From: an uncultured virus (IMG/VR IMGVR_UViG_3300042876_000347)
Lineage: Duplodnaviria > Heunggongvirae > Uroviricota > Caudoviricetes
Length of the DNA: 20,000 nt
Direction: 5' to 3' (one strand)
Virus record (IMG/VR): IMGVR_UViG_3300042876_000347
In this document: positions 1 through 17,501 of the stretch, in pieces
Layout of the letters: each line of letters opens with the position of its first letter
How positions within the stretch are numbered: the first letter of the stretch is position 1
Notes under the pieces: generated by a model
Database searches by the model: none
The model's input: only the letters and a program-made list of their open reading frames with translations
Told to the model about the DNA's origin: nothing
Made by a program: the position numbers and the translations under genes

Positions 1-2092
1 TCTGCTCTGGGTGCTCCCAGTGAACTATCGCTTCCTCGTCCTCCCTAAAGAGGAGGACTGCTTGGTAAAGCTTAGGATGCGTAGAAGAGCTCTCACTCCA
101 CTGGAAGTCGAAGGCAATGCTCTTTGCGTAGTAGTCGTCAAGCGAGTAGGTGGCAACTCTCCTACCAGCGTTGTCATTAGCAGTCCCAGTCTTGAAAGAA
201 GTCCCAGCTGTCTTCTCCGAGTCATAGTACGGGGTGATGGTGATATCCACGTTGTTCGGGTCGAAGTCGAGCATCAGGGTGCCGAACTCCTTGTGGGTAA
301 GAGGGATGCCGGAGTCCCAGCTGCCGGTCCGTAGTTGCACATTCAGGGTCTCATTCACATTCGAGTAGGAGTCATTGAAGTCCCAGAGGTACTGGTCCTG
401 TGCGGTGCCGATGATGAGCTGGTTCCAGTTCTGGCCCTCGTTGTAGTACACAACTGAGGCCCTATCGGGAGTCCACTCAAACCACTTGCCATCTTCGAGC
501 TGCATCACTAGGTGGAAGAGCTTTTGAGTTGTCTGCCCAGGGTAGATGAAGTGGAGCTCCCTGTTGGTCACATAGAGTCTGATCTTGTCAGACTGCACGT
601 AGTCGATAGCCTCTAGGTCACCAGCGGGCCGCCCCCTAAAGATCGGCCTGATAGTGGTGTCTGTCAGATTGACTGGTGTATCCGGCTGGCAGTTCGTTGC
701 ATAGATGCCATCCTTGGAGCAGATGTACACTGCGTTAGGGCCAACGGCGCAGGCCCACTTACCAGCAACTCCCATCCCAATCGGGATCTCCCTAGGGGTG
801 AACTCAGGCGTAGAACTCGGCCCACCATAGTCTAGGGCATAGAGTCTCTTGGTCGAGAACACGAATGGGTTCCCACCAAAGACGAAGCCATTCAGCAGTT
901 CCTCCGCTGGGTCACTCACTGCATTCACATTGTTCAACTGGTTATGCTTCCCTAGGTCATCAGTCGAGTTCCAGTACACGTAGTTCTTCTTGACTGGATC
1001 CCCAACCCAGAAGAGGTACTTCCCCTGGAAGGGGCCGAAGCAGTAAGAGAACTTCTGTCCTGTCAGTGCTGCCCCACTAGAGTCAATGGTTGAGAAGATC
1101 TCCACTAGCTCAGCATCAATGGTCTCCGCTAGGGCTGCAGTAGCATCAGGCACGTTGTCGGTGATGTTCGTGGTGCCTACAGTGCCGTCATTCACCGCAG
1201 TGCCAACTAGCCGCCAGGAGTTGCTAACCGCACCTCCCTTGCGCCATAGCCTGATCTGGTCCACCGCACCCGCTGTAGTCTTCGTGCAGGTGATCACTGC
1301 GTTCTGCGCGCTAAGCACTACCGAGGAGGCAATGATTGCTCCTAAGGGACTCTCGAAGCCGGTCTTGGTGTTCTTGTAGGTGGCAGCATAGTAGTAGGTG
1401 CCAGTGAGTACACCAGCAGGGGTGGAGTCCTTAGTGGGAGCAATCGGAGCGGTGATCCCTAGGTTGTAGGCATAGAGGATCGGCACGTTCGGTAGTGTTG
1501 GTCCTCCAATGGCGAAGCTAGTTGCTGTCACTGGTGGAGCCGTCAGGTTGCAATCCTTCAGGGCGATCCACCACTTTCCATCCACGATCACTAGTGGAAT
1601 CCCATTAGGCGCGTTAGCCAGAATGATCGAGTTCCCTGTGGGATCAATGAAATCCCCGTAGCGAGTAGCGCTAGTGGGCCACCCTGCTGGGTTGGAAAGA
1701 GCCACCTGGGAACTCTTTAGCATCACTGGCACGCCATTGATAAAGACTCTCGCGAGAGGATCAGTGTAGCCTGTCATCCTAGGAGTGGCAGCATGAATAG
1801 TCAAGTAACCATTTACTAAGCCAGCGCTAGTGGTAACCTTACCGATGTAGCGCACAGCCCTTAGGGAGCCTACTCCCCAGAGCCCTGGGTAAGGACTATC
1901 CAAGTACCCTGCTAGCTGCTGCTGCGGCATTACAAAGTACCCACTTGCAGGCCGAGCTTCAATAGCTCCTTCAATGTTGGGCCTAACATTCAGTGCCCTA
2001 GTTAGCTGCCCATCATTTAGGAGCTCTGGAGGGTGCGTAACATCAAGGCCTCCTAGGACGAACCTGAAGGGTTGATTTCTATAGTCTGCCAT
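1..2092 (-). CDS. Tail hub / DNA stabilisation protein (P22 gp10 / tail tubular B-like), partial, runs off the left edge
   Basis: Absent from the ORF track. I translated it by hand: ATG at 2092 overlaps the upstream TAA (TAATG) and the frame stays open for 697 codons to the edge. It starts MADYRNQPFRFVLGGLDVTHPPELLNDGQLTRALNVRPNIEGAIEARP, which resembles the F-x-x-GG-L-D...N-V start of podovirus hub/nozzle proteins. It has beta-propeller-like segments (YLFWVGDP..NYVYWN, AVYICSKDGIYA) and an Ig/FN3-like insert (GTYYYAATY...ESP...IRLWRK). It lies directly after the adaptor genes. Confidence 0.75.
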   Translation of the reverse strand, partial: MADYRNQPFRFVLGGLDVTHPPELLNDGQLTRALNVRPNIEGAIEARPASGYFVMPQQQLAGYLDSPYPGLWGVGSLRAVRYIGKVTTSAGLVNGYLTIHAATPRMTGYTDPLARVFINGVPVMLKSSQVALSNPAGWPTSATRYGDFIDPTGNSIILANAPNGIPLVIVDGKWWIALKDCNLTAPPVTATSFAIGGPTLPNVPILYAYNLGITAPIAPTKDSTPAGVLTGTYYYAATYKNTKTGFESPLGAIIASSVVLSAQNAVITCTKTTAGAVDQIRLWRKGGAVSNSWRLVGTAVNDGTVGTTNITDNVPDATAALAETIDAELVEIFSTIDSSGAALTGQKFSYCFGPFQGKYLFWVGDPVKKNYVYWNSTDDLGKHNQLNNVNAVSDPAEELLNGFVFGGNPFVFSTKRLYALDYGGPSSTPEFTPREIPIGMGVAGKWACAVGPNAVYICSKDGIYATNCQPDTPVNLTDTTIRPIFRGRPAGDLEAIDYVQSDKIRLYVTNRELHFIYPGQTTQKLFHLVMQLEDGKWFEWTPDRASVVYYNEGQNWNQLIIGTAQDQYLWDFNDSYSNVNETLNVQLRTGSWDSGIPLTHKEFGTLMLDFDPNNVDITITPYYDSEKTAGTSFKTGTANDNAGRRVATYSLDDYYAKSIAFDFQWSESSSTHPKLYQAVLLFREDEEAIVHWEHPEQ

Positions 2093-4260
2093 TACTGCCC
2101 TCCATAGATGAACTTAGTAAGTTCGACGCCAGCACTGTAGAGTTCCTCGCAGGCCCTTGCTCTAGCGGGGTCATTCATCTCCCCTTCCTGGGAAAGCAGC
2201 TCTGCTAACACCCCGTATTTCACTGGCCACCAGAGCACGTAGGGTAGTGGGAAGGGAGACCAGGGACTTGCAACTCCGCCTCCACCCCAGGGAGTGCCCA
2301 CGCATCCACAGCCAGTTGGAACTGTCGCTAGCGTTGGCGCTGGTACATACCATGCCTTCAGGGTGGTGACATTCGAGGCTGGTACTAGCTGGATGCTCAG
2401 GCCATCAGGTAGGGGATCCCGGATGTACTGTACACCACTTAGGGAGCCCTGTGAGAGATCAGCTTCTAGCTGGTCTACAGGAAGAATGGCGTAGCTGTCG
2501 GCCTCCAGGCGACGGAGTTCAACTAGATCTGTCGGAAGGGCATACAGGCCTGAGGAACCCGTGATCGTGGCTTCCTTCCTAAGGAGACCCGTGTCTAAGA
2601 GGAACCTTACTAGCCTGTCATAGGTGACTCGTAGGACCTTAGTGATCCCACCAAATCTAGTAAAGCCACCAGTAGCTAGGTAGGCTGTGCTGGAAGGAAG
2701 GGGCTCGATCAAGTGATTCCAAAGCTCGTCTAGGAAGTCTGCGTAGCTCGCTCCTGCGGGTAGCACACACACGTAGTTAGTCTGAGTGCTGGTGGAGTTG
2801 TCTGAACCATTCACTACCTGCAGAGCTACCGTGTAGGTCCCTGCAGTGGTATACGTATGTGAGGGACTCTGGCTTGTGCTAGTGCCTGTGTCTCCAAAGG
2901 TCCACCCCCAGCTCACCACATCCCCCGTGGAGGTATCCTTGAACTGCACTACTAAGGGTGCTACTCCAAAGGTAGGTGAGGCTGTGAAGGAAGCTGTAAC
3001 TTTAGCTGGTAGGATAGTAAAGTTTGAAGTGGTGCTCTTGGTCCCTGCAGGGTTAGTAGTTGCCAGGGTAGCCCAAGCAGCGCCTGCTGTGGTGAACACA
3101 TGTACTGGGTTCTGTGAATCACTAGTGCTCCCATCTGAGAAGGTCCAAGCCCAAGTGGTTGGGTTATTAGTAGCGCTTCCTGTGAAGGCAAAGCTCACTG
3201 GCCGTCGAAGAGTAGCAGGTGTAGCCACATAGCTAATCGTCGGCGTGGGCCTGCCATCCGCTGCCACAATGAGGTTGCTCTTAGTAACTGTGCTGGTATC
3301 TGCCCCTGTGCCTCCTGCCCTAGTGGCAGTCAGGCTCACAGAGTAGGTCCCTGCAATCATGTATGCATGTGAGGGATTCTGTAGGGTGCTAGTTCCCCCA
3401 TCACCGAAGGTCCAACTCCAAGTTGTGGGAGCTGGCGTACCTGTAGTGGTGTCAGTGAACTGGACAGCGAAAGGTGTAGACCCTGAGGTATAGTTACAGC
3501 TAAAGCCTGCCTGTAGGTCAGTTGAGCTAGCATTAACCGTAATGTATGAGGTCTTAGTAACTGAGCCTGAACCCGAGGAGTTGGTGGCTGTCAGTGTAAC
3601 CGTATAGGTCCCTGGGTTCGCGTAGGGGTGCGTGGGATTCTGCGTAGTTCCATGCGTAGTGCTATCCCCATAGTCCCAGTCCCAACTAGTGGGAGTGTTG
3701 CTCGAAGTGTCAGTAAAGGTGACACTTAAGGGGTTGAAGCCACTTAGAGGTGTAGCTGTGAAATTCGCCACTGGCGCAGCTGCAGCTACATAGGTGATGG
3801 TAACGTAGAGGTTATCCACCCCGAAGTACACACCTGAGTTCAGCGCCTTGTTGATCTCGACTCCGAAGATCAGAGAGGACAAATCGGAGGAAGTCCAGCT
3901 TCCCCCACCCGGCCTAGCTAGTGCTCCCGTAGTACTGAAGTAGTAAGAGTGCCCATCATTCTCTGGACCATATACCCTAGTAGAGCCCAGCTGCACGAAG
4001 AACTTCAGCCGGGAGTCCGTGCTCCCCGAGCGCTGTACCGTGCTATAGATCTCCACCTGGGAGATGCTAGTGATGCTAGGAATGCTGGCGGGGTTCAGCG
4101 TATACGAGTCCCTGCTTTGGCTTCCTAGGTCCTGCACCTGAATAATCTTGCTATCCCCAGCTGCTACCACGCAGGGTACATGGTCTAAGGCTGTCCCTGC
4201 TCCTACATTAGTCCAGTCTCTCTCACTCTGCGCGTAGGGGATGAAATCAAAAGTTGCCAC
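2092..4260 (-). CDS. Virion protein: N-terminal beta domain, four PKD (Ig-like) domains, C-terminal head-tail adaptor/ring-like domain
   Basis: 722 aa, GTG start overlapping the upstream TAG. Four PKD signatures: WDWDYGD..QNPTHPYANPGTYTVTLT, WSWTFGDG..QNPSHAY..AGTYSVSLT, WAWTFSDG..QNPVHVF and WGWTFGD..QSPSHTYTTAGTYTVAL. The last ~220 aa contain YALPTDL and YGVLAELL, matching YLDLPTDY and YGALAELA in the 310-aa adaptor. Confidence 0.8.
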   Translation of the reverse strand: MATFDFIPYAQSERDWTNVGAGTALDHVPCVVAAGDSKIIQVQDLGSQSRDSYTLNPASIPSITSISQVEIYSTVQRSGSTDSRLKFFVQLGSTRVYGPENDGHSYYFSTTGALARPGGGSWTSSDLSSLIFGVEINKALNSGVYFGVDNLYVTITYVAAAAPVANFTATPLSGFNPLSVTFTDTSSNTPTSWDWDYGDSTTHGTTQNPTHPYANPGTYTVTLTATNSSGSGSVTKTSYITVNASSTDLQAGFSCNYTSGSTPFAVQFTDTTTGTPAPTTWSWTFGDGGTSTLQNPSHAYMIAGTYSVSLTATRAGGTGADTSTVTKSNLIVAADGRPTPTISYVATPATLRRPVSFAFTGSATNNPTTWAWTFSDGSTSDSQNPVHVFTTAGAAWATLATTNPAGTKSTTSNFTILPAKVTASFTASPTFGVAPLVVQFKDTSTGDVVSWGWTFGDTGTSTSQSPSHTYTTAGTYTVALQVVNGSDNSTSTQTNYVCVLPAGASYADFLDELWNHLIEPLPSSTAYLATGGFTRFGGITKVLRVTYDRLVRFLLDTGLLRKEATITGSSGLYALPTDLVELRRLEADSYAILPVDQLEADLSQGSLSGVQYIRDPLPDGLSIQLVPASNVTTLKAWYVPAPTLATVPTGCGCVGTPWGGGGVASPWSPFPLPYVLWWPVKYGVLAELLSQEGEMNDPARARACEELYSAGVELTKFIYGGQ
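2761..3778 (-). repeat. Four tandem PKD domain repeats (protein-level, about 85 aa each)
   Basis: The pattern A-x-F..P..V-x-F-x-D-T..W-x-W-x-F-G-D..Q-N-P-x-H-x-Y..G-T-Y-x-V-x-L recurs four times. The third copy is the most degenerate. Confidence 0.9.
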
Positions 4261-4970
4261 TAACTACCTCCCTTAAGACCAGGGGTTGCTACTGCACTAG
4301 GTGCCTGTGGGGTACGCTCTACTCCCATGTACTTGCTGTAAAGGGCAATCCCTGCAAGCTTGGAGTTTCTAGTCCTAGCTGCGAGGAGCATCATCTCTCG
4401 GAGGGGAGCGGAGTTCTCAAGGCCTTCCTTTGGGCTCTCCTTGAAGCTGAGGTACCACTGTGCGTACTCTAGGATCCTCACCAGTTCTTCGTCCCCTAGG
4501 TTCACATAGCTGGAGTCAGAGGTCAGGATCCGGTCACCCCTATAGTAAAAGGCCCCATAGGTAGTGCTAGTTCCTGTCTGTGGATAGACTACTACATGTG
4601 AAACCCCATAAGGTGCCCAGTAGGTAGGGGTTCCTGTTACTGCTGCCCTCCACCCATACTTCTCAAAGTCTAGGTCATCCACACTAGTGGGGTTCAGCGT
4701 TGCGCTTCCCTGAGTTACCCTGAGGATGTTTAATGGCACAGGGCTTAGAGCGTTAGCATTCGCCCCTGTGGGGTCGAACACTTCGACTAGGTTGCCTGTG
4801 CCAGTAAAGTTCGCTGAGGCCACGAAGTCCCCTGTCATGAGTTGCCACACCGCTAGGGCCTCGTTGATCGCGTCTTCCCGTTCGTGCTCTGACCAGAACT
4901 TCCCTTGACTTCCTACTTGCTGCGCTAGGCGATCCTTTAGGGCGAGAAAAGTAGTTCTAGCATATGCCAT
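4260..4970 (-). CDS. Head-tail adaptor / tail ring protein (P22 gp4 or tail tubular A-like)
   Basis: 236 aa. Helical N-terminus (TTFLALKDRL...FWSEHEREDAINEAL), central GTPTYW..VVVYP..FYYR segment and C-terminal helices (LVRILEYAQWYLSFKE). This is the layout typical of podovirus adaptor proteins. It sits between the capsid and tail hub genes. Confidence 0.65.
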   Translation of the reverse strand: MAYARTTFLALKDRLAQQVGSQGKFWSEHEREDAINEALAVWQLMTGDFVASANFTGTGNLVEVFDPTGANANALSPVPLNILRVTQGSATLNPTSVDDLDFEKYGWRAAVTGTPTYWAPYGVSHVVVYPQTGTSTTYGAFYYRGDRILTSDSSYVNLGDEELVRILEYAQWYLSFKESPKEGLENSAPLREMMLLAARTRNSKLAGIALYSKYMGVERTPQAPSAVATPGLKGGS

Positions 4971-4972
4971 CG

Positions 4973-5170
4973 TTACATCCCGCTAGAGAATCCGGGGCCT
5001 CCACCAATCTTGGGAATGCGTACTCCTGGGGGCTTAGGTGCGCTCACCTGGGGGAGCCCCTCAGTTAGGGGTGGGAGACCAACAGACTGCTTAGGCGCAG
5101 GCGGCTTCATCCCTCGGTATGCGCGAAAAGCTTCCAGAGCACTAGGCTTCTTCTTAAGAATCCCAGGCAT
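4973..5170 (-). CDS. Small Pro/Lys/Gly-rich hypothetical protein
   Basis: 65 aa. GGAG precedes the ATG, and the ORF fills the gap between its neighbours (8 nt and 2 nt spacers). Confidence 0.6.
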   Translation of the reverse strand: MPGILKKKPSALEAFRAYRGMKPPAPKQSVGLPPLTEGLPQVSAPKPPGVRIPKIGGGPGFSSGM

Positions 5171-5178
5171 CTGGGGGA

Positions 5179-5367
5179 TTACTCCAGGCTCTTTAGATAG
5201 CTAAAGAGGTCGCTGTCACCTAGGCCGATCACAGGCTTCTGGCCGTTGATCTCTAGGTCTCCGCCCACGTAAACAGGACCCGAACCATTGATCTCTAGAT
5301 CACTGGAGCCCGAGGAGGGCTTGACAATCGCATCCTTGAACACCGGCTTTAGAGTAGTGTTTGCCAC
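5179..5367 (-). CDS. Microprotein with an FKDAIVKP motif and two DLEING repeats
   Basis: 62 aa, GTG start preceded by AAAGGAAG. The motif copies differ only at synonymous positions, which supports translation. Confidence 0.75.
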   Translation of the reverse strand: MANTTLKPVFKDAIVKPSSGSSDLEINGSGPVYVGGDLEINGQKPVIGLGDSDLFSYLKSLE

Positions 5368-5384
5368 TTTGAAAACTTCCTTTC

Positions 5385-6317
5385 CTAAACAAGCCCATGC
5401 GATTGCATGAACTTAGCATCAATTGGGTACCCTAGCCCACCGTCGTCCGAGTCTAGGATCATCGTCTGTGACCGATCGAGGTCGTTCATCACTGAGTTCT
5501 GGAATGCCTCATCGAGCATCTCCGTGTACTGCCGATGTGAGTCGGGACTAAAGAACGGGTTCGGCTTTGCGCCAGTTCCTGGCCAGAGTGCAAGCTCTGC
5601 GAGTGCCCCATACACAAGGCACTCAGGTCTAAGTGCATCAATGATCCTATCTGAGTCAGCACTTAGTGTGTGATTCTTATAATACCTGTATACGAGCTCT
5701 CGTTCAACCTCAATCCGGGGCCAGAACTCAAGCCTAGGCACACGCACGTTGTTTGTGTCAAGTCGTGTTGGTGCAGCAACATACAGGATAGGAGTGCCAG
5801 CGAACGTTCGCTTCGGGTCAATCCGATCAATGTACGCCTGCTGACTCTGTTGAGTGCGTAGCCGCCAGTTCGTGTTGAGATCTCTGATCTCATCCATCGC
5901 CCTATAGTCAGTTGGGAGGTCCAGGTAGAAGTTGCCGATCCTGTAGGAGATTCCCGCCGGGAGGCTGGTGGGTCCTCCAAAGGCCCTATCAATCGTCATG
6001 CTGGTAACCCCAGCCACCGCTGTGATGGTATACCAGGGGGCGATGTTGTTCGGCGCAATCTGCCTGTTGATCATCGCTGAGGTCCAATCAGTGCCAACGC
6101 CACTCACTGTAGTACTGCCATTTGTGAATACTGCTGTGCCCGTAGTGCTGACTGCCTTAGTCAACAGAGAGGCTTCCGCCCGTAGCTCACTCCAGTAGTG
6201 ATCCGTGATCACCCGCTGGTATGTATTCTTAACTGCTTGCTGAATTACCCCGACTGGCGCATCGGGAGCGTAGAGTCTGACCCGATTCCACACCATACCA
6301 AACGTATCTTGTGCCAT
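5385..6317 (-). CDS. Head-tail adaptor / tail ring protein with an inserted beta domain
   Basis: 310 aa. Motifs TFGMVWNRVR, HYWSEL, YLDLPTDY, GTPILY, LEFWP, YRYYK and LVYGALAEL follow the adaptor pattern. The insert TGTAVFTNGSTTVSGVGTDW...YTITAV resembles fibre-attachment-type beta domains. Start overlaps the endonuclease stop (TAATG). Confidence 0.7.
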   Translation of the reverse strand: MAQDTFGMVWNRVRLYAPDAPVGVIQQAVKNTYQRVITDHYWSELRAEASLLTKAVSTTGTAVFTNGSTTVSGVGTDWTSAMINRQIAPNNIAPWYTITAVAGVTSMTIDRAFGGPTSLPAGISYRIGNFYLDLPTDYRAMDEIRDLNTNWRLRTQQSQQAYIDRIDPKRTFAGTPILYVAAPTRLDTNNVRVPRLEFWPRIEVERELVYRYYKNHTLSADSDRIIDALRPECLVYGALAELALWPGTGAKPNPFFSPDSHRQYTEMLDEAFQNSVMNDLDRSQTMILDSDDGGLGYPIDAKFMQSHGLV

Positions 6318-6700
6318 TAGAGATAACTTTCCAAGTAAGCAATTGCTCGGCGCATTCTATCTGTATCCTCATCAAAAAGCCCTAGAGCAGCATTACAGGG
6401 TTGGCACAAAATGCCTCTTACCTCTCCCGTAAGATGATCATGGTCTACATTGGTAGCTTTTGAATCAATGTTTAACGCTTTAAGACAAATCAAGCAACAG
6501 CCTCCTTGATCTGCAATACGCTGCTTTAGCTCTGCCTTGTCTATACCATATCGACAAAGAAGGCGTGCTTCTCGTGCACACGCTTTACAACGCCACTGCA
6601 AACCATCTGCAGCAGCTGCACACTTTGCAAAGTTAGGAAGGGGCAAGTGCTTCTTACAACAGGAGCAACGCTTTTCTGTATCACCCACTTTAATTTTCAT
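6317..6700 (-). CDS. Endonuclease VII-family nuclease (free-standing homing-endonuclease-like)
   Basis: 127 aa. N-terminal CxxC...CKAC Zn module, then YGI...QGGCCLIC...NVDHDHLTGEVRGILCQPCNAALGLFDED...AIAYL, the classic Endonuclease_7 signature. AT-richer than its neighbours. Confidence 0.9.
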   Translation of the reverse strand: MKIKVGDTEKRCSCCKKHLPLPNFAKCAAAADGLQWRCKACAREARLLCRYGIDKAELKQRIADQGGCCLICLKALNIDSKATNVDHDHLTGEVRGILCQPCNAALGLFDEDTDRMRRAIAYLESYL

Positions 6701-6710
6701 AAGCTTAACA

Positions 6711-6737
6711 GAAAAGGGGAGGCACTAAGCCTCCCCT
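6711..6737 (-). terminator. Rho-independent terminator after the capsid operon
   Basis: The minus strand reads AGGGGAGGC-TTAGT-GCCTCCCCT-TTTC: a perfect 9-bp GC-rich stem, 5-nt loop and short U tract, about 20 nt after the stop of the 88-aa gene. Confidence 0.8.
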
Positions 6738-6757
6738 CCATCCTAACTAGTTAACCC

Positions 6758-7024
6758 TTACCAACCGATGAACCCGAGCTTCTGACTTGCGGCACCAGAG
6801 GGGACAGCGCCATCAGTGCCGTAGACCGTTAGCGTACCCGACGCCCACGCGGCCCCTTGCACCGTAGCATTGCCCTGAAGGACCAGCACCCCAAGGATCG
6901 TCTGCAGGCCGACAGCGTTCGCTGCCAGTGCATTCACCCCCGTGGTGTTGACCGTCACGGTAGCCGTATGAAGCTTCAGGTCACCAATCCAGTGCTGTTC
7001 TAGACCTGTAACACCGATAGCCAT
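6758..7024 (-). CDS. Small beta-rich capsid-associated (decoration-like) protein
   Basis: 88 aa with a strong SD (TAAGGAGGT). Last gene before the terminator in the capsid operon. G/A/T/V-rich. Confidence 0.55.
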   Translation of the reverse strand: MAIGVTGLEQHWIGDLKLHTATVTVNTTGVNALAANAVGLQTILGVLVLQGNATVQGAAWASGTLTVYGTDGAVPSGAASQKLGFIGW

Positions 7025-7033
7025 GAAACCTCC

Positions 7034-7573
7034 TTACCAGCCGTTACGCGGAGGGGCGAGGAATACCGTCCGAGTAGTACCAGTAGCCGTGGTGAAAGCC
7101 TGAACCACAAAGCCCGCACCAACCTGATCGACCTCGTTGGTCTGCGAACCGGAAGCCTTGAAGACCGCCTCAGTCGTAGCCGCGATGAGCTTAGCACCCA
7201 CCACGCCAGTGCCAGTGACCTTCGCATTTACGGGACCAGCAACCTGAATGTACCCATACTGGGAGGTTGAAGGAACCGCGCTTAGGAAGACCCCTGCCAC
7301 CACCGGGTTAACCGCACCACCTAGCGCGCCAGTGGTCGCAGCCACTACTGTGTAGTTGCTTAGGTCAGCCCAGTAAGCCACCGCACCCGTAGTGGGGGCT
7401 GTGGCATCCGTCTGAGAACGCTTCACCTTCTGGAACGCCTGCATGCCAAGAGTACCCTGAATGAAGGTAACCTTGCCAAGTTCGCCCGGAATCTGCTGAG
7501 TCGCCTCGTCGGCCAGATTCATGTTGCCCGCTAGACCCTGAATCCAGAGCCCGTCCTGTCGCTTGTCTGCCAT
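7034..7573 (-). CDS. Capsid decoration / cement protein
   Basis: 179 aa, directly after the major capsid gene, AAGGAG SD. The motif VAGVFLSAVP..QYGYIQVAGP is typical of beta-tulip-type cement proteins. Confidence 0.65.
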   Translation of the reverse strand: MADKRQDGLWIQGLAGNMNLADEATQQIPGELGKVTFIQGTLGMQAFQKVKRSQTDATAPTTGAVAYWADLSNYTVVAATTGALGGAVNPVVAGVFLSAVPSTSQYGYIQVAGPVNAKVTGTGVVGAKLIAATTEAVFKASGSQTNEVDQVGAGFVVQAFTTATGTTRTVFLAPPRNGW

Positions 7574-7606
7574 TTTCTCTATAGCTCCTTTCTAAAACCC
7601 TAAGCC

Positions 7607-8668
7607 TTAGGCGAAGCCCCAGAGAACTCGCATGAGCCTAGGAGCCTGACAGGTGAAGTTACCCGCAAACTTGTAGTGGCCCACGACCATGGAGTTGTCC
7701 TGCGCAGGAAGGAACCCAGTGAAGCCGAAGCCAAACAGGGAATCCGTCGAGAGGTAGAACCGGAGGTACTTGGTGTTGAGGAACCAGAGGGTCTCGCCAC
7801 TCAGGGCAGAGATGCCTAGCTTAGTGGACTCCATGGTGCTCACCGTGTCAGTACCCGGGGCGTATCGGTCCTGGAAGATCGTAGCGCCGTTGAACTTGAT
7901 ACCCTGGAAGCCAAAGTCGGCCGTGGTACCCTCGTAGCGCTGCTGTGCGTGGAAGGCGAGCTTGATCATGCTCATGCCCTTGTTCGTAGTGATAAGTAGA
8001 TCAGGGCTCTCAGTTCCATACACCACTGAGTTATACGCCTGCTCTAGGATGGGGTAGGAGAGTGAACCCGAGCTCTGGTCACCCGCCACGTAGCCCTCAG
8101 TCGAAAGAATCGGGCTGTTGATCGCCGAGCCGATGTTGCCGTCGTTACGCGTTAGCGTGAGGTAGGAAGCATAGGTCTCCGCGAAGGGGCCATTGTTGGA
8201 GCCATTCGAAAGGGCCTCAGCAAGACCATTGATGTACTTGGTCCGGTCACCTAGGGCCGTGCCCGTCTGGCCGTGCCGGAAGATGTCCGTTGCTAGCTTG
8301 GCGCTCATCGTGAGGGCCGCCGCCTGCATTAGCATGTCAACATAGTTGAACACTGCCTCAGGACCCGCCATCTCGATCTTGACCTTCTCCAGTAGCGCGG
8401 GCACTGGAACGTTGTAGTACCGAGGCGTGACTGTGCCTCCGGTGAAGATCTGCTGCTGCTTGATGTCGAAGCTCTCACCCGGAACGTAGGGCTGAACGTC
8501 AAGCATGCCATAGAGGAAGTTCTCCTGCCAGCTGGGGCCTCCAGCGTACTTCTGCAGGCAATTCCTCTTGATGTACGCCATAGTCGGACCGCTCTTGAAA
8601 ACTAGGTCCGTGACGCCGGGCACGATGGTCTTTCGAGCAATCGTGTTAACCGGATCAAGAAATGCCAT
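7607..8668 (-). CDS. Major capsid protein (HK97 fold)
   Basis: 353 aa with an AAAGGAG SD, following the scaffold. Motifs INGLAEAL, PDLLITT, FQGIKFNGATIFQDRYAP, LWFLNTKYLRFY and GNFTCQAPR resemble podovirus major capsid proteins. Confidence 0.85.
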   Translation of the reverse strand: MAFLDPVNTIARKTIVPGVTDLVFKSGPTMAYIKRNCLQKYAGGPSWQENFLYGMLDVQPYVPGESFDIKQQQIFTGGTVTPRYYNVPVPALLEKVKIEMAGPEAVFNYVDMLMQAAALTMSAKLATDIFRHGQTGTALGDRTKYINGLAEALSNGSNNGPFAETYASYLTLTRNDGNIGSAINSPILSTEGYVAGDQSSGSLSYPILEQAYNSVVYGTESPDLLITTNKGMSMIKLAFHAQQRYEGTTADFGFQGIKFNGATIFQDRYAPGTDTVSTMESTKLGISALSGETLWFLNTKYLRFYLSTDSLFGFGFTGFLPAQDNSMVVGHYKFAGNFTCQAPRLMRVLWGFA

Positions 8669-8697
8669 TTGTTAACTCTCCTTTAAAAAAGACCCCG

Positions 8698-9465
8698 TTA
8701 GAAGTTCCCTTCCACGAACTCTTTCATGGCTGCAGAAACTCGGTCCCCTGAGGAGGGTGCCTTGTTCGCTGCGTCATTTAGGGAGTTCAGGTAGGAAACC
8801 ACGTTAGCCGTAGGCTGAATATGATCGGGGCTGTTGGTCAGTGCTTGGCGTCGACCCTCTGCAATCCACTTCTGCTTCTCGTCTTCCTGCGCCTTTTCAT
8901 AGCGCTTTCGACGTTCGTCAGCCGTTAGGCTCTCATAAGCCCTGTAGGGTTCGATACCTTGCTGTAGTGATAGCCGAATGACCTCTCGGGGATCAACGTT
9001 AAAGCCATTCTTGATGGCGTCATGGGTAAAGGCTGCAACGTCCCCTAGCACACTAGGTAGCATCTTATCCAGTACGTCCACCTTGTTAACCTTAGCCCTG
9101 AGCTCCGCAAGATCCTGCGAAGAGATTCCGAGGTCAGTACCCGAAGCGGCGGGGGCATTTCCTGAACCTAGGGTCTCAAGCTGCGCTCGGAGTGCATCCC
9201 GTTCAGCAATGAGAGCCTCATTCTTGGGTGCCTCCTCCTCATACCACTTGGCTAGTTCCGCAGCATCGTCCTTGAGCTGGCGCTCCTGGGCGGTGATATC
9301 GTTTAGCCGAGTGTAGTAATCCTCAGTACGAAGGGAGCCTCGGAAGACATCCCGAGCGAACTCCGTCTGAGAAAAGGCCTTGAAAGCTTCTAGCTCTGCG
9401 CCCGCTAGCTTAGCTTCTCCAGCCTCAATCCACCTCTTGTACTGTTCGTCCTCTTTTCGCGACAT
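8698..9465 (-). CDS. Capsid scaffolding protein
   Basis: 255 aa, charged and helical/coiled-coil (LRTEDYYTRLNDITAQERQLK). Directly upstream of the major capsid gene. GGAGGT SD. Confidence 0.65.
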   Translation of the reverse strand: MSRKEDEQYKRWIEAGEAKLAGAELEAFKAFSQTEFARDVFRGSLRTEDYYTRLNDITAQERQLKDDAAELAKWYEEEAPKNEALIAERDALRAQLETLGSGNAPAASGTDLGISSQDLAELRAKVNKVDVLDKMLPSVLGDVAAFTHDAIKNGFNVDPREVIRLSLQQGIEPYRAYESLTADERRKRYEKAQEDEKQKWIAEGRRQALTNSPDHIQPTANVVSYLNSLNDAANKAPSSGDRVSAAMKEFVEGNF

Positions 9466-9495
9466 ATTCCTTCGTTACCTCCTGGGGTTTACGGC

Positions 9496-9807
9496 CTAGT
9501 AAGGGAACTTAGCGTTAGGACTTTCCAGCCCCTGCTTACCCTCGAAGGACGCTCCACCGGAAATTGCCTGCGCTAGGATCTCAGAAAGGCGAGTTTTGAT
9601 CTCATCAATCTCCTCGGCCTGATCCGGGATAATGCTAGCCAGTGAATCCAGAACAAACTGGATCTCATCAAAAACGTCTTTCAGCCCTCCGCCGCCGCCA
9701 GACGGGTTAGGCTTTTCAGACCGCGCCATGGCGCTAAGCCCCTGCGGGGTAGAGCCAGGAGGCGGACCTGACATCTTGCTCGTGCTAACGGGCGGCATGC
9801 TAGCCAT
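9496..9807 (-). CDS. Hypothetical protein (disordered N-terminus plus helical hairpin) between portal and scaffold
   Basis: 103 aa, tightly packed between its neighbours. Confidence 0.65.
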   Translation of the reverse strand: MASMPPVSTSKMSGPPPGSTPQGLSAMARSEKPNPSGGGGGLKDVFDEIQFVLDSLASIIPDQAEEIDEIKTRLSEILAQAISGGASFEGKQGLESPNAKFPY

Positions 9808-9812
9808 TTAAG

Positions 9813-9932
9813 TTACTTCCCCGTCTTGTTGTTCTGCGCAGGAGCAGGACTAGAATGCCCACCGCCCGGCTTAACAATCGCATCTTTGAAGGGGGAGTTC
9901 ACTAGGGTGCTGCCCTTCTTGGTTTCTGCCAT
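9813..9932 (-). CDS. 39-aa microprotein MAETKKGSTLVNSPFKDAIVKPGGGHSSPAPAQNNKTGK
   Basis: Below the ORF-track cutoff. AAAGGAG SD at 9944-9950. First ORF after the internal promoter. Shares FKDAIVKP with the ORF at 5179-5367. Confidence 0.75.
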   Translation of the reverse strand: MAETKKGSTLVNSPFKDAIVKPGGGHSSPAPAQNNKTGK

Positions 9933-9966
9933 TTCGTTATAGTCTCCTTTCGACGGAACTACTGTT

Positions 9967-9996
9967 ATAGTAAAGTCCTAAAGCCCTAGGTGTCAA
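9967..9996 (-). promoter_or_regulatory. Sigma70-type promoter for the capsid operon
   Basis: Minus-strand TTGACA (9996-9991, overlapping the portal stop), 18-nt spacer, TACTAT (9972-9967). Lies in the intergenic gap upstream of a strong SD. Confidence 0.65.
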
Positions 9997-12095
9997 GCAC
10001 TTTCGGAAACTACTGGACGGGTTCCGCCGTCCCGGGTTTCGAAGTGAGGAGCCACCGCGCCCGAAGGAGGTCTGCCCCCTGAGGCATTAGGACCTGGGGG
10101 AGCTGGAGGCCCACCGGCTGGGGCCGGTCCCATTTGTGGAGGGGTACCCCCTGGGGGCATCCCACCGCCCATCTGCTGCTGCGCCATCATCTGCATCATC
10201 ATTTGCTGCATTTGAATCTGCTGCATCTGAAGCTGCTGGAGCTGACTCTGTAGCTGAGCCTGCACTAACTCAGGCGTTGGCCCTTGCATAAGGCCCTGCT
10301 CCCGGGCTTTGACGATCCGCTCTGGCACAGTCTCCGCAGGGTAGGGGCCAATGTCGGGAACGTCAAACTGCGTCCAGACTGTCCAGGGATCCATGAGGTT
10401 CGACCTAAGTAGCTGTAGCATGAACATCTTCTGGGTAGTGTGGCTAACATTGAGCCAAGAGTTTGGCGCCACCTGGAAGGAGAAGAGCTTGTGGTGTTCC
10501 ATGGCGCGCTCCTGCCTAGTGCCCTCACCAGCAGGCACAAGGGTACCTGGGTCAAAGTCGAAGTCCTCCCGAGTAAGGCCATCCTTGCCGAGAAGTTCGA
10601 TCCTCCTGGGAGCGGAGTACCACTGGAAGAAGCCAACCTTTAGCATCTCAGCTAGCTCAGAAAGGGAGATTTCCATGTTCCTAGACCTTAGCCGTAGGAT
10701 TGGGCTGAGCGCCTCCATGAAGCGCTCCATGGTATCAGCTGATGGCATCTGGCCTAGCTGAGAGAGTTGCTGAACGCCGCGCATCCCTGAGGCGTCATCC
10801 ATGGCTACTTTGAGGTATTCGATCAGATTGTTATAGATGGTGAAGACCTGCGGGTCAGGACCATCAAGCACCTTGAAGGGCTCCCCCGCCGCTGGGTTGT
10901 AATGGAACTTCACACCAGCCTTCCGGGTGTCTAGCGCATCTAGGGCACTCTTAGGCATAGCTCGCTTGTCAGCTGCCACGCTCCTTCGTACCCACTGGTT
11001 GAGACCATCCTCCGCTCCTCGGAGTGCTTCGTTAAGGGCATCCTGGAGGGGAATGAGATCTCCCAGCACGCTGGCACCTAGGAGGGTCCAAGGGATGGGA
11101 TCCATGGTAAACCTGACCACAGGGAAGAGCCCGTGCCAGTGAGGGTTGGGGAGGTCCTTAAGGACTGCCTCAGGAGTAAAGATGATTAGCCGGCCCCTAG
11201 GGTAGAGTTTAGCCTCCTCCTTAGTGACCACCGTTCCATCTTCCCTGGTCCAGCCCATTGGGTAGACCGTGTAGGACCATTCGCCCTCACCTAGAGTGAT
11301 AGGCTTGTCGCCTAGGTTTAGGGTGTCATCCTTCATGTACGCACGCATCACATCTACGCCCGGTGGGTCCTGAACGTTCTTCTTGCCCTCTAGGACTTCC
11401 CACTGGGGGCTAACGATAGAGCCCATTCCTGAGGAGCTATCCGTCCTTGGGATTGGTGCCCAGGTGAGCTCCTTACCGAAGATCTTCGGTGCCTTAGAGG
11501 GGAACATGCGCTTGACAGTTTCCAGGGGCATCCGCTGCCGTAGGATCACCCCACGCCAGTCCTGAATACTATCAGAGTAGACCGGATCAATAGGAACCAC
11601 ATCTCGGGGGTCAAAGGGGATCAGCTCAAGATCACCTTGCCCACCCTGCAACTCCTTGTTGAAAGTCAGGAGACCATAACCTGTGCCCCCACACAGGGCG
11701 TACAAGAGAATGCTAACTAGCCTCTTATCCGCCTTGGTGTTCTTCCACCATGCTCTCGCAAGCTTGTTAAGCACATCGCCCTGCTTCTTAAACTCCTCGG
11801 CGTAGGTCTCGTAGTTCCAAATCGGCCGCACGTCCGTCAGCGTGGCACACGCTTCCATGGCGATCTTCCGCATCCGGTTGTCCACAATCCTGGAGATCGT
11901 CCTACTCTTCATCGAGTACTGCTTACCCTCAAGGTAAAGCATCGCCTGAGGCATCTGATCCCAGGCACGCTCCTTCTTGAGGAGAGTCATCCCTTCGCCA
12001 TGCTTGATTCTAAGCCAGCTGAGAAGGACCTTTTCCTGCTCATCGGCTGAAGCTACTTTAGCTGCAGCGTTGTCGTAGTTTGATAGTTCAGCCAC
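9993..12095 (-). CDS. Portal protein (P22-like) with a Q/M/P/G-rich C-terminal extension
   Basis: 700 aa between terminase and scaffold/capsid. Motifs VDNRMRKI, YALCGGTGYG, FDPRDVVPIDP, YPRGRLII, NPHWHGLFP, GDLIPLQDALN and DDASGM. GTG start with AAGGAG SD. Confidence 0.85.
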   Translation of the reverse strand: MAELSNYDNAAAKVASADEQEKVLLSWLRIKHGEGMTLLKKERAWDQMPQAMLYLEGKQYSMKSRTISRIVDNRMRKIAMEACATLTDVRPIWNYETYAEEFKKQGDVLNKLARAWWKNTKADKRLVSILLYALCGGTGYGLLTFNKELQGGQGDLELIPFDPRDVVPIDPVYSDSIQDWRGVILRQRMPLETVKRMFPSKAPKIFGKELTWAPIPRTDSSSGMGSIVSPQWEVLEGKKNVQDPPGVDVMRAYMKDDTLNLGDKPITLGEGEWSYTVYPMGWTREDGTVVTKEEAKLYPRGRLIIFTPEAVLKDLPNPHWHGLFPVVRFTMDPIPWTLLGASVLGDLIPLQDALNEALRGAEDGLNQWVRRSVAADKRAMPKSALDALDTRKAGVKFHYNPAAGEPFKVLDGPDPQVFTIYNNLIEYLKVAMDDASGMRGVQQLSQLGQMPSADTMERFMEALSPILRLRSRNMEISLSELAEMLKVGFFQWYSAPRRIELLGKDGLTREDFDFDPGTLVPAGEGTRQERAMEHHKLFSFQVAPNSWLNVSHTTQKMFMLQLLRSNLMDPWTVWTQFDVPDIGPYPAETVPERIVKAREQGLMQGPTPELVQAQLQSQLQQLQMQQIQMQQMMMQMMAQQQMGGGMPPGGTPPQMGPAPAGGPPAPPGPNASGGRPPSGAVAPHFETRDGGTRPVVSESA

Positions 12096-15488: not shown

Positions 15489-15517
15489 ATTATACCTTAG
15501 AGGTTAGGTCCAGTCCA
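15489..15517 (-). promoter_or_regulatory. Sigma70-type internal promoter
   Basis: Minus-strand TGGACT (15517-15512), 17-nt spacer, TATAAT (15494-15489), in an AT-rich intergenic gap after terL. Confidence 0.6.
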
Positions 15518-17501
15518 CACCTTCCATCAGGCGGTCATAGAGAGAATCCATGTCCTCGCCTACCCCTAGTCCTCCCGCTAACTCCCAGAGCTGCTTGGGC
15601 TTCCGCGGGTTCTGCCTTTGCTTCTCCTTAGCCTCCTGTTCCCGCCTTCTCTCATCAGCTATGTTTAGGATGTCAAACTCATGTGCGATGTAAAGTGCAA
15701 TTCCAAGAGCAATAATCCTATCGTCATGGTAGCCCTCGAAGGCTTCAAAGTGCCACCTGCCCGAGGCACTCTTGGACTTTACGAAGCTTCCCATCTCCTC
15801 GATGAGTTTGGGCGAGTTGATAAGAACGTCCTCCCTCTTAAGGAACTCAATCAGAGTGTTCACTAGATAGGGCCTAGTGCCAGTGGTAGTCCACCAGCCG
15901 TAGACGGTTGCCATCTGCCCTGTGGTGGTATGTGGGCGCTGCTGGACATAGAAGTTGTTATAGCCAAGGCGCTCTAGCTCAGCCTGGGTTGTGCCACCAG
16001 GAGAGCCTGGGTTGCACTCCACGGCCATCAAGGCATCCAAATCCATCGACTTATCCCGGTAGATCCTACCAATTAGGGCAGCCACTACTGCTAACTCCGT
16101 AGGCGGAAGGTCTCCTGCCCACTCTGCTACCTGCTCGTCCTTCTCCCAGCGGTCACCAACCCGGAGAACCTGGACTACTGCGTTATCCTGCTCCAGCCCG
16201 TGGGAGGCATCCACAGCCACCACGTAGAGCTTCCCTGGCCGGGGCATCTCCCACATGACTAGCTTACGCTCCCACTTGTCAGGGCCACTGGCTAACTTCC
16301 ACTCCCCTAAGTCGACCTTAGTTAGCTTCTTGCTCATCAGGTTAACCTCCCCCACGAACACTGGAGGCTTGACCTTATCCCTCATACGGGAACGGAGCTC
16401 AAGGGAGAAGACACTCTTTACCCCTGTCTGGAAGGCTTCCTCCACCGTAGAGGGGTACTCCTGGTAGAACTTCTCTAGCTCACCCTTGTTCTCGAAGTCT
16501 CGTCTAGTGTACTGGTAGTAGGCTAGCTGCTCTTTGTCTAATGCCTCCCCTGTCTCCTGCTTCACCCTCTTCGCCATGTCGAGAGTGTGTGGGAGGAACT
16601 CGAAGCCCTCACTCCGAAGCCTATTGTTTGGCCTCAGGTACCATGCTGCAAAGACTGCCTTGAAAGAGGTCTTCTTCTCCCAGGCAGCCATGAAATGCTC
16701 GTAAAACCAGTTACCCTTAGCGCCTGCACCTGTTGACTCCATCAGAATAATCGAGTGATGCTTGTGCGAGGAGTTAAACGCAGGCATAAGGTCTTCATCA
16801 ATGTAGGCTGGGAACTCCCAAGTTGAGAGCTCAGTGAGGTGGCAAACATCAATGTTCATGCCCTGACCTAAGGTGGTGCGCTGGTTTCCAGCACCGACTA
16901 ACACTGAGGAGTCAAGCTTGGGGAACTGTAGGTGAGTACCTTTGACTCTGCCTCCTGCCATTGGCCTGAGCCACTTGGGAAGGTTGTCGTACATCCTAGT
17001 GAGGGTGCCGTAAAGGTTCAGCGAGGTATCGGGGTGGTCGCTCGCAATCAGCCCATAGGTGTTGGCGTTGAGGAAAACCATGTGCGCTACTAGGGCTTCC
17101 CCAATCACGGTACCTCCTACCTGACGACTCTTCAGGAGCACTAGGGGGATCTTAACCTCTCCGAACTCCCACTGCCGGGCTTCCTCATCCTCTAGGATCT
17201 TAAGCACCTTCTCCTGCGAGGGCCAAGGAATGATCGGCTCTAGCTTCTTTTGGTCAGTCAGGATCAGGCAAAACCTAGTCAGGAAGTACCTGAAGTCGAT
17301 CTTGCAGAGCAGGCGGTTCCTGGTGACAAACTCCTGCTCTTCAGCTGAGAGTGCCCTTAGGAGTTGACCTTCCTCATCGAAGGCATCCTTTAGGCGGAAG
17401 TTGAAATCCTGTACCTCCTGGTAGGTGTTCTCCCCCAAGGACAGTCCTAGTGCATCTTCTAGCTTCTTCCTGTTCTGCTCAACTACCTTGAGGGAGTACA
17501 C
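15504..17501 (-). CDS. terL: Terminase large subunit
   Basis: 665 aa. Walker A LLKSRQVGGT, Walker B-position CHLTE, motif C ESTGAG (then GNWFY), and RNase H-like nuclease motifs VAVDASHG...DNAV, AVECN and HDDRIIAL. Confidence 0.92.
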   Translation of the reverse strand: MYSLKVVEQNRKKLEDALGLSLGENTYQEVQDFNFRLKDAFDEEGQLLRALSAEEQEFVTRNRLLCKIDFRYFLTRFCLILTDQKKLEPIIPWPSQEKVLKILEDEEARQWEFGEVKIPLVLLKSRQVGGTVIGEALVAHMVFLNANTYGLIASDHPDTSLNLYGTLTRMYDNLPKWLRPMAGGRVKGTHLQFPKLDSSVLVGAGNQRTTLGQGMNIDVCHLTELSTWEFPAYIDEDLMPAFNSSHKHHSIILMESTGAGAKGNWFYEHFMAAWEKKTSFKAVFAAWYLRPNNRLRSEGFEFLPHTLDMAKRVKQETGEALDKEQLAYYQYTRRDFENKGELEKFYQEYPSTVEEAFQTGVKSVFSLELRSRMRDKVKPPVFVGEVNLMSKKLTKVDLGEWKLASGPDKWERKLVMWEMPRPGKLYVVAVDASHGLEQDNAVVQVLRVGDRWEKDEQVAEWAGDLPPTELAVVAALIGRIYRDKSMDLDALMAVECNPGSPGGTTQAELERLGYNNFYVQQRPHTTTGQMATVYGWWTTTGTRPYLVNTLIEFLKREDVLINSPKLIEEMGSFVKSKSASGRWHFEAFEGYHDDRIIALGIALYIAHEFDILNIADERRREQEAKEKQRQNPRKPKQLWELAGGLGVGEDMDSLYDRLMEGVDWT

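Follow-up and report, generated by a model that had tools for sequence, protein, structure and literature searches.

Two microprotein families conserved in a lineage of uncultured podoviruses carry one homologous N-terminal arm, a putative docking motif of the neck

Profile comparison indicates that two separately conserved families of microproteins, encoded by an uncultured podovirus with an SU10/T7-type neck, have in common one homologous N-terminal module of about 17 residues; this arm may be a short linear docking motif. The window under study, 20,000 nucleotides long, belongs to a contig of 38,005 bp that is probably about half a genome. Both genes are located on the minus strand. Past the portal gene, the first ORF is that of microprotein A (9813–9932; 39 aa plus stop, ATG start); microprotein B (5179–5367; GTG start, 62 aa plus stop) is encoded directly behind the adaptor gene. 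In the hhalign alignment, the arm comprises residues 9–25 of A (9858–9908, minus strand) and residues 4–20 of B (5308–5358, minus strand). An earlier note had pointed out the octapeptide FKDAIVKP in both ORFs, and it is indeed encoded at 9890–9867 and 5340–5317; these 24-nt stretches are identical at 21 of 24 positions and the three differences are all third-position and synonymous (AAA/AAG, GTT/GTC, CCG/CCC). The G/S-rich stretch described after the motif is likewise present in both proteins (GGG and SSGSS). The (S/T)TL element claimed upstream holds in part: "TL" occurs in both, but the two copies align only with a shift of one residue. A six-frame pattern search gave only these two matches, in the window and in the whole contig. 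With a motif HMM, the two carriers of the 38-kb contig scored 27.0 and 24.0 bits (next best 5.1), and the two carriers of a complete relative of 70.8 kb scored 26.5 and 25.6 bits (next best 6.8). Motif carriers are exactly two per genome; a third one, sought in the longer ORFs of all loci, was not found in convincing form.

The bare octapeptide match is not significant, since 62 of 300 Markov-1 random windows show a shared 8-mer somewhere in their six frames, a frequency that would suit a chance match. Between the two real coding frames, however, a shared 8-mer appeared in only 8 of 3000 residue shuffles. In our reading of the sequences, the decisive support for the reality of the motif is its conservation in relatives and not the 8-mer alone: the ORFs and their motif are kept in dozens of relatives, while synonymous change is free. 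Across these relatives the alanine of the core is written with all four of its codons, and F, K and D each with both of theirs. Since the core codons take every synonymous form, what is constrained is the peptide, not the DNA, as had been proposed earlier, and a repeat acting at the DNA or RNA level was ruled out on the same grounds. The possibility of a coincidence, or of a nucleic acid element, is thus refuted at the sequence level by the relatives and their synonymous variation, and we give it practically no weight. The closest pairs yielded dN/dS values of 0.17 for A and 0.22 for B; pairwise values across the families are mostly saturated (median dS about 1.5), so that only these closest pairs are informative.

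The earlier note had made its proposal depend on conservation of the 39-aa ORF and on retention of the motif in homologues, and both A and B turned out to be conserved genes whose homologues keep the motif. A-type ORFs were found at the same position in 22 loci (22 ORFs), with F-K-D-A exact in 14 of them and [FY]-x-D-A in 21; homologues form 54 clusters at E<1e-3 in a collection of 5.8 billion proteins, and F, D and A are each at least 90% conserved among 55 family-A sequences. These peptides, of 26–48 aa, are an almost bare arm, beyond which there is a short basic, SPxP/K-rich tail. A Shine-Dalgarno-like site precedes all 19 of 19 A starts; in the window it is the sequence match AAAGGAG at 9944–9950 (minus strand). 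Further upstream, a sigma-70-like promoter candidate was recognised by consensus match only (9967–9996, minus strand; TTGACA, an 18-nt spacer and TACTAT). With 10 of 12 matches, this site is the best between positions 4000 and 12500, although sites of this class show no enrichment (7 found versus 4.1 ± 2.3 in shuffles). The listing of RNA runs had no entry for positions 4900–10100. The earlier description of A as a "high-copy" peptide has gene position as its only basis.

The small conserved protein p103 (9496–9807, minus strand) starts 5 nt past the stop codon of A. This arrangement, with A first in its operon and conserved at the peptide level, would be compatible with a regulatory upstream ORF whose nascent peptide tunes the expression of p103, the scaffold and the major capsid protein (MCP), the likeness to B being incidental or derived. 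We consider this very improbable: B carries the same motif followed by a conserved domain, and A homologues differ in how far the motif is from the stop codon (0 to about 25 codons), which to our knowledge is unlike known arrest peptides. At one locus (L022) the A-type ORF has the motif at its C-terminal end; this shift of position suggests that it behaves as a linear motif, unlike a folded domain. The A peptide of another locus (L025) has F-A-E-P in place of F-K-D-A, and in the Tunturiibacter phage Tunturi_1 the A position is occupied by a basic ORF of 43 aa that has no motif. Among isolated phages the closest relatives are those of Tunturiibacter, with 24% identity in the capsid protein, and the motif is absent from them. 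From this motif-less counterpart, it follows that the A-type peptide may have a role independent of the arm.

B-type ORFs were found in 11 loci, directly 3' of a p310 homologue, and F-K-D-A is kept in 9 of them. Among 1.84 billion representatives, the B profile gave 34 matches at E<=1e-3, 25 of which are of 55–89 aa, and 24 of these 25 are family members; across 30 family-B sequences the conservation of F10 and of D12 is 90% or more. B starts 17 nt past p310, and its Shine-Dalgarno-like site, AGGAAAGGAAG (5376–5386, minus strand), overlaps the end of the adaptor gene; comparable sites precede 10 of the 11 B starts. The AlphaFold2 (AF2) model of B shows residues 1–25 without secondary structure, and beyond the arm there is a conserved beta/helix domain of roughly 40 residues. 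D-L-E-I-N-G is indeed present twice in B; nevertheless, what had been described as a "DLEING-repeat cargo" is instead a small conserved domain of a stand-alone family, given that all 24 true representatives are of 55–69 aa and none has a fibre shaft or receptor-binding part behind the arm. The core is absent from two representatives (P0174 and P0176); together with the A peptide of L025, they indicate that the motif is not indispensable. Longer matches of the B profile (P0165, P0172 and others) were discarded as unrelated tandem-repeat proteins with scores inflated by 4–16 partial stretches. P0172 has 13 copies of DUF7507, and each repeat contains a T-F-F-K-D-A-V-V-K strand, a resemblance to the motif that we regard as incidental.

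The alignment of both family profiles with hhalign covers 17 N-terminal columns (probability 95.9%, E 5.5e-9), and outside this arm A and B have nothing in common. The core found in both families is [ST]-x-F-K-D-A, or more fully [ST]-[P/V]-F-K-D-A-[I/V]-x-K-P, with a G/S hinge behind it. In a comparison of the variable positions between -7 and +10, the identity of A and B is 0.354 within genomes versus 0.234 between genomes (permutation p=2e-5, 10 genomes); when a near-duplicate genome was dropped and L042 added, these values were 0.374 and 0.259 (p=1e-4). The excess is seen separately on the upstream (p=0.004) and the downstream (p=0.008) side of the core. In these permutations the genome is the unit, shared ancestry is incompletely corrected, and 10–11 genomes of the set analysed carry both genes. 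Because the variable residues that flank the core are more alike within than between genomes, the two arms evolve in concert. The idea of one signal placed in two otherwise different small proteins, put forward in the earlier note, fits both the 17-column match and this co-variation.

A homologous module could also be the remnant of an old duplication, homogenised by gene conversion, in proteins whose jobs are unrelated and which have no common partner. Codons at identical residues are slightly more often the same within genomes (45/79, 57%) than between them (265/551, 48%), and in L024 the two arms agree in 10 of 11 codons, so that part of the within-genome likeness could come from conversion. 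Nevertheless, only the arm is common to both proteins and the remainder is unrelated. In addition, its core has been held while dS between relatives is saturated and all synonymous codons are used, which implies that each gene has independently been under purifying selection at these same residues; moreover, only functionally interchangeable arms would allow conversion tracts to persist. For these reasons we regard paralogy in the absence of a common partner as rather improbable.

The position of both genes places them in a conserved structural region. The order portal-A-p103-scaffold-MCP-p179-p310-B was observed in 15 of 15 loci, as far as each contig reaches, and the genes 3' of B differ between loci. 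The portal protein (9993–12095, minus strand) was assigned through phrog_156 (E 1.6e-27), with SU10_portal and P22_portal matches just under the Pfam cut-offs, and the MCP (7607–8668, minus strand) through phrog_9953 (E 7.7e-16). The 255-aa protein encoded between them (8698–9465, minus strand) is inferred to be scaffold-like from this location, together with coiled-coil hints. Protein p310 (5385–6317, minus strand; 310 aa) is the head-to-tail adaptor, with the fold of SU10 gp11, made up of a helix bundle, a beta dock domain and a C-terminal tail. This assignment is based on the PF24175 (SU10_adaptor) signature, present in 16 of 33 p310 homologues, and on an AF2 model (pLDDT 88.3, with a C-terminal tail, residues 288–310, of low confidence). 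Its top Foldseek matches are the adaptors of SU10 (7z47_A, E 4.9e-7), GP4, Pa223, A4 and N4. The first three ranks, held by SU10 and GP4, have E values of 4.9e-7 to 1.1e-6, and all 14 matches at E<=1e-3 are chains of podovirus tail or portal-tail entries. A comparison by hhalign of the p310 profile with p236 was not significant, though both are related to PF24175.

In phage T7 the fibre protein gp17 docks on the adaptor ring through an N-terminal arm. A similar arrangement has been described for SU10, where the gene after the adaptor encodes the fibre protein gp12, whose extended N-termini rest on the helix-bundle and fibre-dock domains of the adaptor gp11 (PMC9509320). The likeness to our lineage is that p310 has the same predicted fold as gp11 and that B is directly 3' of the adaptor gene in every locus reaching there, which is untrue of A. 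On the other hand, gp12 has 786 residues whereas B, with 62 aa, lacks a fibre shaft, there is no sequence or Pfam match between them, and a free-standing second arm carrier, such as A beside the portal, has no counterpart in the SU10 article (PMC9509320). Another related case is that of KP32 and K11, podophages of Klebsiella; in their second receptor-binding protein, a conserved N-terminal peptide (CP) about 35 aa long serves only to dock this variable protein onto a tail component, namely another fibre's T4gp10-like branching domain (PMC13579863). The arms of A and B resemble CP as short N-terminal peptides with a putative docking role, but their carriers are microproteins and not enzymes. 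The sole T4_gp9_10_N match was sub-threshold (E 0.0044, 17.5 bits versus a cut-off of 25), in an ORF of 252 aa elsewhere on the contig (G000:C1, 15506–16264).

From the sequence evidence and these analogies we infer a docking role for the arm and a partner within the neck; that A and B carry one linear motif for a single partner in neck or head assembly is, in our judgement, somewhat probable. According to this proposal, one partner protein would recognise the flexible arm of both, and A (arm plus basic tail) and B (arm plus domain) would be tethered to the same kind of site, either during head-neck assembly or within the virion. Given that the neighbours of A are head genes and those of B are tail genes, the common partner is not obvious. 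By analogy with the gp12 arms on gp11, adaptor-like proteins, including the p310 ring, are tentative candidates; the portal is a less likely one, as is, to the same degree, the group formed by the capsid protein, the scaffold and p103, and the remaining weight falls on something else. A complex prediction with portal residues 1–640, p310 and A, in which A was scored, gave 0.00 and is neither support nor contrary evidence.

A more specific scheme, to which we attach a small probability, is that A, in soluble form, takes the place of B's arm as a placeholder or timer of head-tail joining. In such a scheme the head operon would supply A early and in surplus, and A would fill a groove of the neck partner, on the portal or on an adaptor-like ring, so that B or its load could engage only at the right moment of assembly. 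As a variant, A might serve one and B another of three adaptor-like paralogues, the groove being the same.

The location of A is also relevant to a different destination, the capsid interior: through binding of the arm to the scaffold or core, A (as an internal basic peptide) and B would be packed in the head and perhaps ejected. In T4, small core proteins are also encoded right after the portal gene, and the capsid targeting sequence (CTS) of the internal proteins is removed by the prohead protease. Here, A is located between the portal and the scaffold, it is the ORF that comes first after the best promoter-like site, and its tail is basic, as is the small positional counterpart of Tunturi_1. 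The T4 internal proteins have in common only a conserved N-terminal targeting sequence, a short peptide that sends otherwise unrelated proteins to one assembly site (PMC3012670), much as A and B have in common only their N-terminal 17-column module, with the C-terminal motif of the L022 peptide as an exception. The differences are that the CTS has no sequence likeness to the arm and works with the scaffolding core (PMC3012670), whereas B is a tail-module gene placed beside the adaptor and not with the head genes. Furthermore, no prohead protease family was found among 25 ORFs scanned in the window and 10 others elsewhere on the contig, which is probably incomplete. The suggestion of a capsid-interior signal or protease site, made in the earlier note, was not borne out, and we consider interior targeting unlikely. 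Encapsulin cargo-loading peptides are another precedent for short linear tags, sufficient to address different cargos to one HK97-fold shell; their usual place is the C-terminus, and they come from nanocompartments of bacteria, not from phages.

The short, linear and N-terminal character of the motif, with Pro and Gly bracketing it, is compatible with a processing site, and a protease site was among the earlier suggestions. The arm might then be a tag for an enzyme or chaperone instead of a structural docking site, e.g., for a protease (of host or phage), a modifying enzyme or a chaperone of assembly that acts on both microproteins. No protease or modifying enzyme turned up beside either gene, however, and the co-variation of the flanks points to a phage-encoded, co-evolving reader and not to a conserved host enzyme; we judge such a tag improbable.

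Phages rely on short docking peptides to direct components to their proper position, and such peptides serve as handles in particle engineering, e.g., for cargo loading and fibre swaps. With its roughly 17 residues, the arm would be a compact tag, kept throughout an entire lineage of uncultured phages, and the sequence evidence suggests that both copies, one on a near-bare peptide and the other on a small domain, follow one and the same reader. Should the partner come to light, the system could provide a minimal natural tag-and-socket pair for the podovirus neck or head, and two "hypothetical" microprotein families, of a kind that gene callers often miss, would be explained. The case also illustrates that shared linear motifs make it possible to recognise conserved microproteins of structural operons.

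Neither family corresponds to a described one in Pfam-A, PHROGs v4 or the PDB sequences. A and B had no match in Pfam or PHROG (with PHROGs v4 at E<=0.01, 0/30 B-family and 0/55 A-family members match), and profile searches of the PDB gave only E values of about 0.5–1.5. Scans for further genomes were also negative: the p310 single-sequence scan of viral contigs and the capsid-profile scan of genome contigs found none, and the p310 profile scan added no new genome. The DNA of the region had no match among 50,697 phage records, and in the same collection the capsid protein found distant relatives only, with 22–24% identity. A search of the ESM Atlas with B returned unnamed viral clusters only, at about 0.90.

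A phage structural module is encoded on the minus strand of the window; it comprises, in order, the large terminase (15504-17501), the portal (9993-12095), a 39-aa ORF here called A (9813-9932), the 103-aa ORF p103 (9496-9807), a scaffold-like protein of 255 aa (8698-9465), the major capsid protein (MCP; 7607-8668), ORFs of 179 and 88 aa (p179 and p88), an endonuclease VII gene (6317-6700), the 310-aa protein p310 (5385-6317), a 62-aa ORF with a GTG start, here called B (5179-5367), a 65-aa ORF (4973-5170), the 236-aa protein p236 (4260-4970), the 722-aa protein p722 (2092-4260) and another large ORF. The earlier note had claimed that the microproteins A and B share the peptide F-K-D-A-I-V-K-P, and had suggested that the constraint acts on the peptide. 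Searched in all six frames, the window and the entire 38,005-bp contig yielded these two matches only, and the corresponding 24-nt stretches (9890-9867 and 5340-5317) indeed differ at three positions, each a synonymous third codon position. The bare 8-mer match is not more than chance would give; of 300 random windows from a Markov-1 model, 62 have some common 8-mer in their six-frame translation. When the match was restricted to two real coding frames, 8 of 3000 residue shuffles gave one. The case against chance rests on the relatives. A motif HMM detected exactly two carriers both on the contig (27.0 and 24.0 bits, the next hit scoring 5.1) and on a complete relative of 70.8 kb (26.5 and 25.6 bits, against 6.8 for the next hit).

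No close relative was found among cultured phages: the DNA search was without any match, and the capsid protein search gave cultured matches at only 22-24% identity, in phages of Tunturiibacter, Myxococcus and Rhizobium. Relatives with 55-80% capsid identity are numerous among viral and metagenome contigs. In the 15 loci mapped, the order portal-A-p103-scaffold-MCP-p179-(p88)-p310-B is kept over whatever part of it each contig covers, and the genes that follow B differ between loci. An A-type ORF is present in 22 loci, with an exact F-K-D-A in 14 and [FY]-x-D-A in 21; the ORF of locus L025 has F-A-E-P at the core position. A B-type ORF is present in 11 loci, nine of which keep F-K-D-A. In large protein collections the A profile matched 54 clusters at E<1e-3 and 65 at E<=1, all of 30-61 aa, and the B profile matched 34 proteins at E<=1e-3. 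Twenty-five of the latter have 55-89 aa, 24 of them being true members (55-69 aa), and long repeat proteins make up the remaining nine. F, D and A each reach at least 90% conservation among 55 A sequences, and F and D do so among 30 B sequences; the core is missing from two B representatives. Neither family has a sequence match in Pfam, PHROGs or the PDB.

A Shine-Dalgarno-like site precedes 19/19 A starts and 10/11 B starts at a distance of 4-13 nt, every synonymous codon is used for the core residues across the relatives, and the closest pairs have a dN/dS of 0.17 for A and 0.22 for B, most other pairs being saturated; therefore, A and B are genuine protein-coding genes. The conservation of the core while all its synonymous codons occur, together with these ratios, upholds the proposed constraint on the peptide. 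An origin of the likeness by chance, or in a DNA element, has a practically negligible probability, and a regulatory nascent peptide is very improbable.

Only an N-terminal module of about 17 residues, referred to as the arm, is common to A and B. Profile-profile comparison of the two families aligned 17 columns (probability 95.9%, E 5.5e-9), which start two to five residues ahead of [ST]-x-F-K-D-A and reach to a G/S hinge. After the arm, A runs on into G-G-x-x-S-P-x-P and ends rich in lysine, and in some relatives it has just 26-28 aa; in B the arm is followed by S-S-G-x-S-D-L-E...G-D-x-E-I-N-G-Q-K-x-V-I-G and a short C-terminal helix. In L022, one of the relatives, the motif is found at the C-terminal end of the A-type ORF, and the low-confidence AF2 model of B (pLDDT 66.6) lacks secondary structure in residues 1-25. 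Taken together, these features characterise a short linear motif carried by a flexible arm rather than a folded domain. Two large tandem-repeat proteins match the B profile via a repeated strand: P0172 (1491 aa) consists of 13 copies of DUF7507, each with T-F-F-K-D-A-V-V-K, and the repeats of P0165 (1625 aa) contain T-V-F-R-D-S-I. Their likeness to the profile is probably incidental; they show that the core can belong to a beta-sandwich repeat, which hints at strand addition as a way in which the arm might bind.

When A and B were anchored on the Phe and compared from -7 to +10, excluding the F, D and A positions, their identity was 0.354 within the same genome versus 0.234 between different genomes (permutation p=2e-5, 10 genomes). 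This excess was maintained without a near-duplicate genome (p=1.4e-4) and without the window as well (p=4e-4); with locus L042 added the values were 0.374 versus 0.259 (p=1e-4), and here the stretches before the core (p=0.004) and after it (p=0.008) each showed the excess on their own, in a sample of 10-11 genomes where permutation of genome labels leaves some effects of shared ancestry. Such a pattern could also reflect paralogy without a common partner, the likeness being maintained by conversion. At identical residues, 45/79 codons agreed within genomes, as against 265/551 from one genome to another; because this excess is slight, except in L024 (10/11), recent gene conversion is not the source of most of the signal, and older or local conversion between the arms may have occurred. 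Paralogy of this kind is considered unlikely. With or without conversion, the two arms would seem, judging by their sequences, to behave as interchangeable copies that track one reader, i.e., a partner recognising the arm.

We lean slightly towards a docking arm that A and B share and that one common partner, whichever it may be, recognises. The arm would be a docking peptide, read by one phage-encoded partner during head-neck assembly; A would be scarcely more than the arm plus a basic tail, and B the arm mounted on a small domain. Conservation and selection on the peptide were observed, as were the two carriers in each genome, their concerted evolution and their synteny with portal and adaptor; binding by the arm, and its partner, are inferred. 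Gene position and likeness to SU10 make an adaptor-like ring or the portal our preference. By sequence and model, p310 is the head-to-tail adaptor: 16 of 33 homologues carry PF24175, and its AF2 model (pLDDT 88.3), in which a helix bundle is combined with a large beta domain and a C-terminal tail of low confidence, matched podovirus tail and portal-tail chains in Foldseek (E 4.9e-7 to 8.8e-4; SU10, GP4, Pa223, A4, KHP30, VP1, Carin-1 and N4). As described for SU10, the gene after the adaptor encodes gp12, the proximal long-tail-fibre protein, and the N-termini of three gp12 chains rest on the helix bundle and fibre-dock domain of the adaptor (PMC9509320). B holds the gene position of gp12, yet is only 62 aa long. 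A comes right after the portal gene, and just ahead of it lies the region's best sigma-70-like match (9996-9967, 10/12 matches), which is a consensus match only, of a class not enriched in the region.

Alternatively, the arm might target proteins to the prohead core, similarly to the T4 capsid targeting sequence (CTS). The position and basic tail of A would fit, and T4 is described as having a shared N-terminal tag (PMC3012670); however, B is placed in the tail module and no protease was detected among the 25 ORFs of the window and 10 others of the contig that were scanned, so that this reading is doubtful, albeit less so than any other rival. A tag for an enzyme or chaperone is a little less credible than the paralogy discussed before. 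As regards the preferred docking arm, it is already known that different proteins can be addressed to one site by a short, conserved peptide at their terminus, as in the T4 CTS and the fibre N-termini on podovirus adaptors; the "conserved peptide" of the second receptor-binding proteins of KP32/K11 is reported as a further case (PMC13579863). Unusual here are that one carrier, A, has almost nothing beyond the tag, that the carriers are split between the head and tail gene blocks, adjoining portal and adaptor respectively, and that the two copies co-vary within genomes.

Besides p310, the tail module holds two more adaptor-like proteins on the minus strand: p236, with a match to Pfam SU10_adaptor (PF24175; E 1.9e-9), and p722, in which four PKD domains precede a C-terminal SU10_adaptor-like part (541-711; PF24175, E 3.2e-7). 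The three make up a multi-ring or decorated neck and recall the stacked ring proteins of other podoviruses. The cultured distant relative Tunturiibacter phage Tunturi_1 (PP887698.1; capsid 24% identical) has the same gene order, with a basic, S/T/P/K-rich 43-aa ORF lacking the F-K-D-A core at the A position (5687-5818). No B-like ORF follows its 330-aa "tail protein"; the next protein starts with a signal-peptide-like hydrophobic stretch.

The endonuclease VII/HNH-type gene, between p88 and the adaptor gene, has no match at that place in the 15 mapped relatives and is likely a mobile insertion; in Tunturi_1 an HNH gene lies elsewhere, after the portal gene. The 65-aa ORF, rich in proline and lysine, gave no tblastn match in the same relatives, and may be lineage-specific or not a gene. 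The C-terminal ~90 residues of the portal (~610-700; 9993-10270) are of low complexity and rich in Q, M, P and G, a character conserved among relatives. The 38,005-bp contig is probably about half a genome, because the longest contigs of relatives reach 63-73 kb (one relative, of 70,830 bp, has a completeness rating of 100%) and a contig of 68,309 bp is on record for the window's own A and p310 proteins. A 2181-aa ORF without a Pfam match (contig positions 5212-11757, minus strand), located downstream of the tail genes, probably encodes a giant protein of the internal or ejection type. Finally, a 539-aa protein with a UDG-superfamily domain (contig positions 1337-2956, plus strand) adjoins a separate 394-aa protein with a family A DNA polymerase domain (3264-4448, plus strand); their proximity suggests that the polymerase is split or otherwise unusually arranged.
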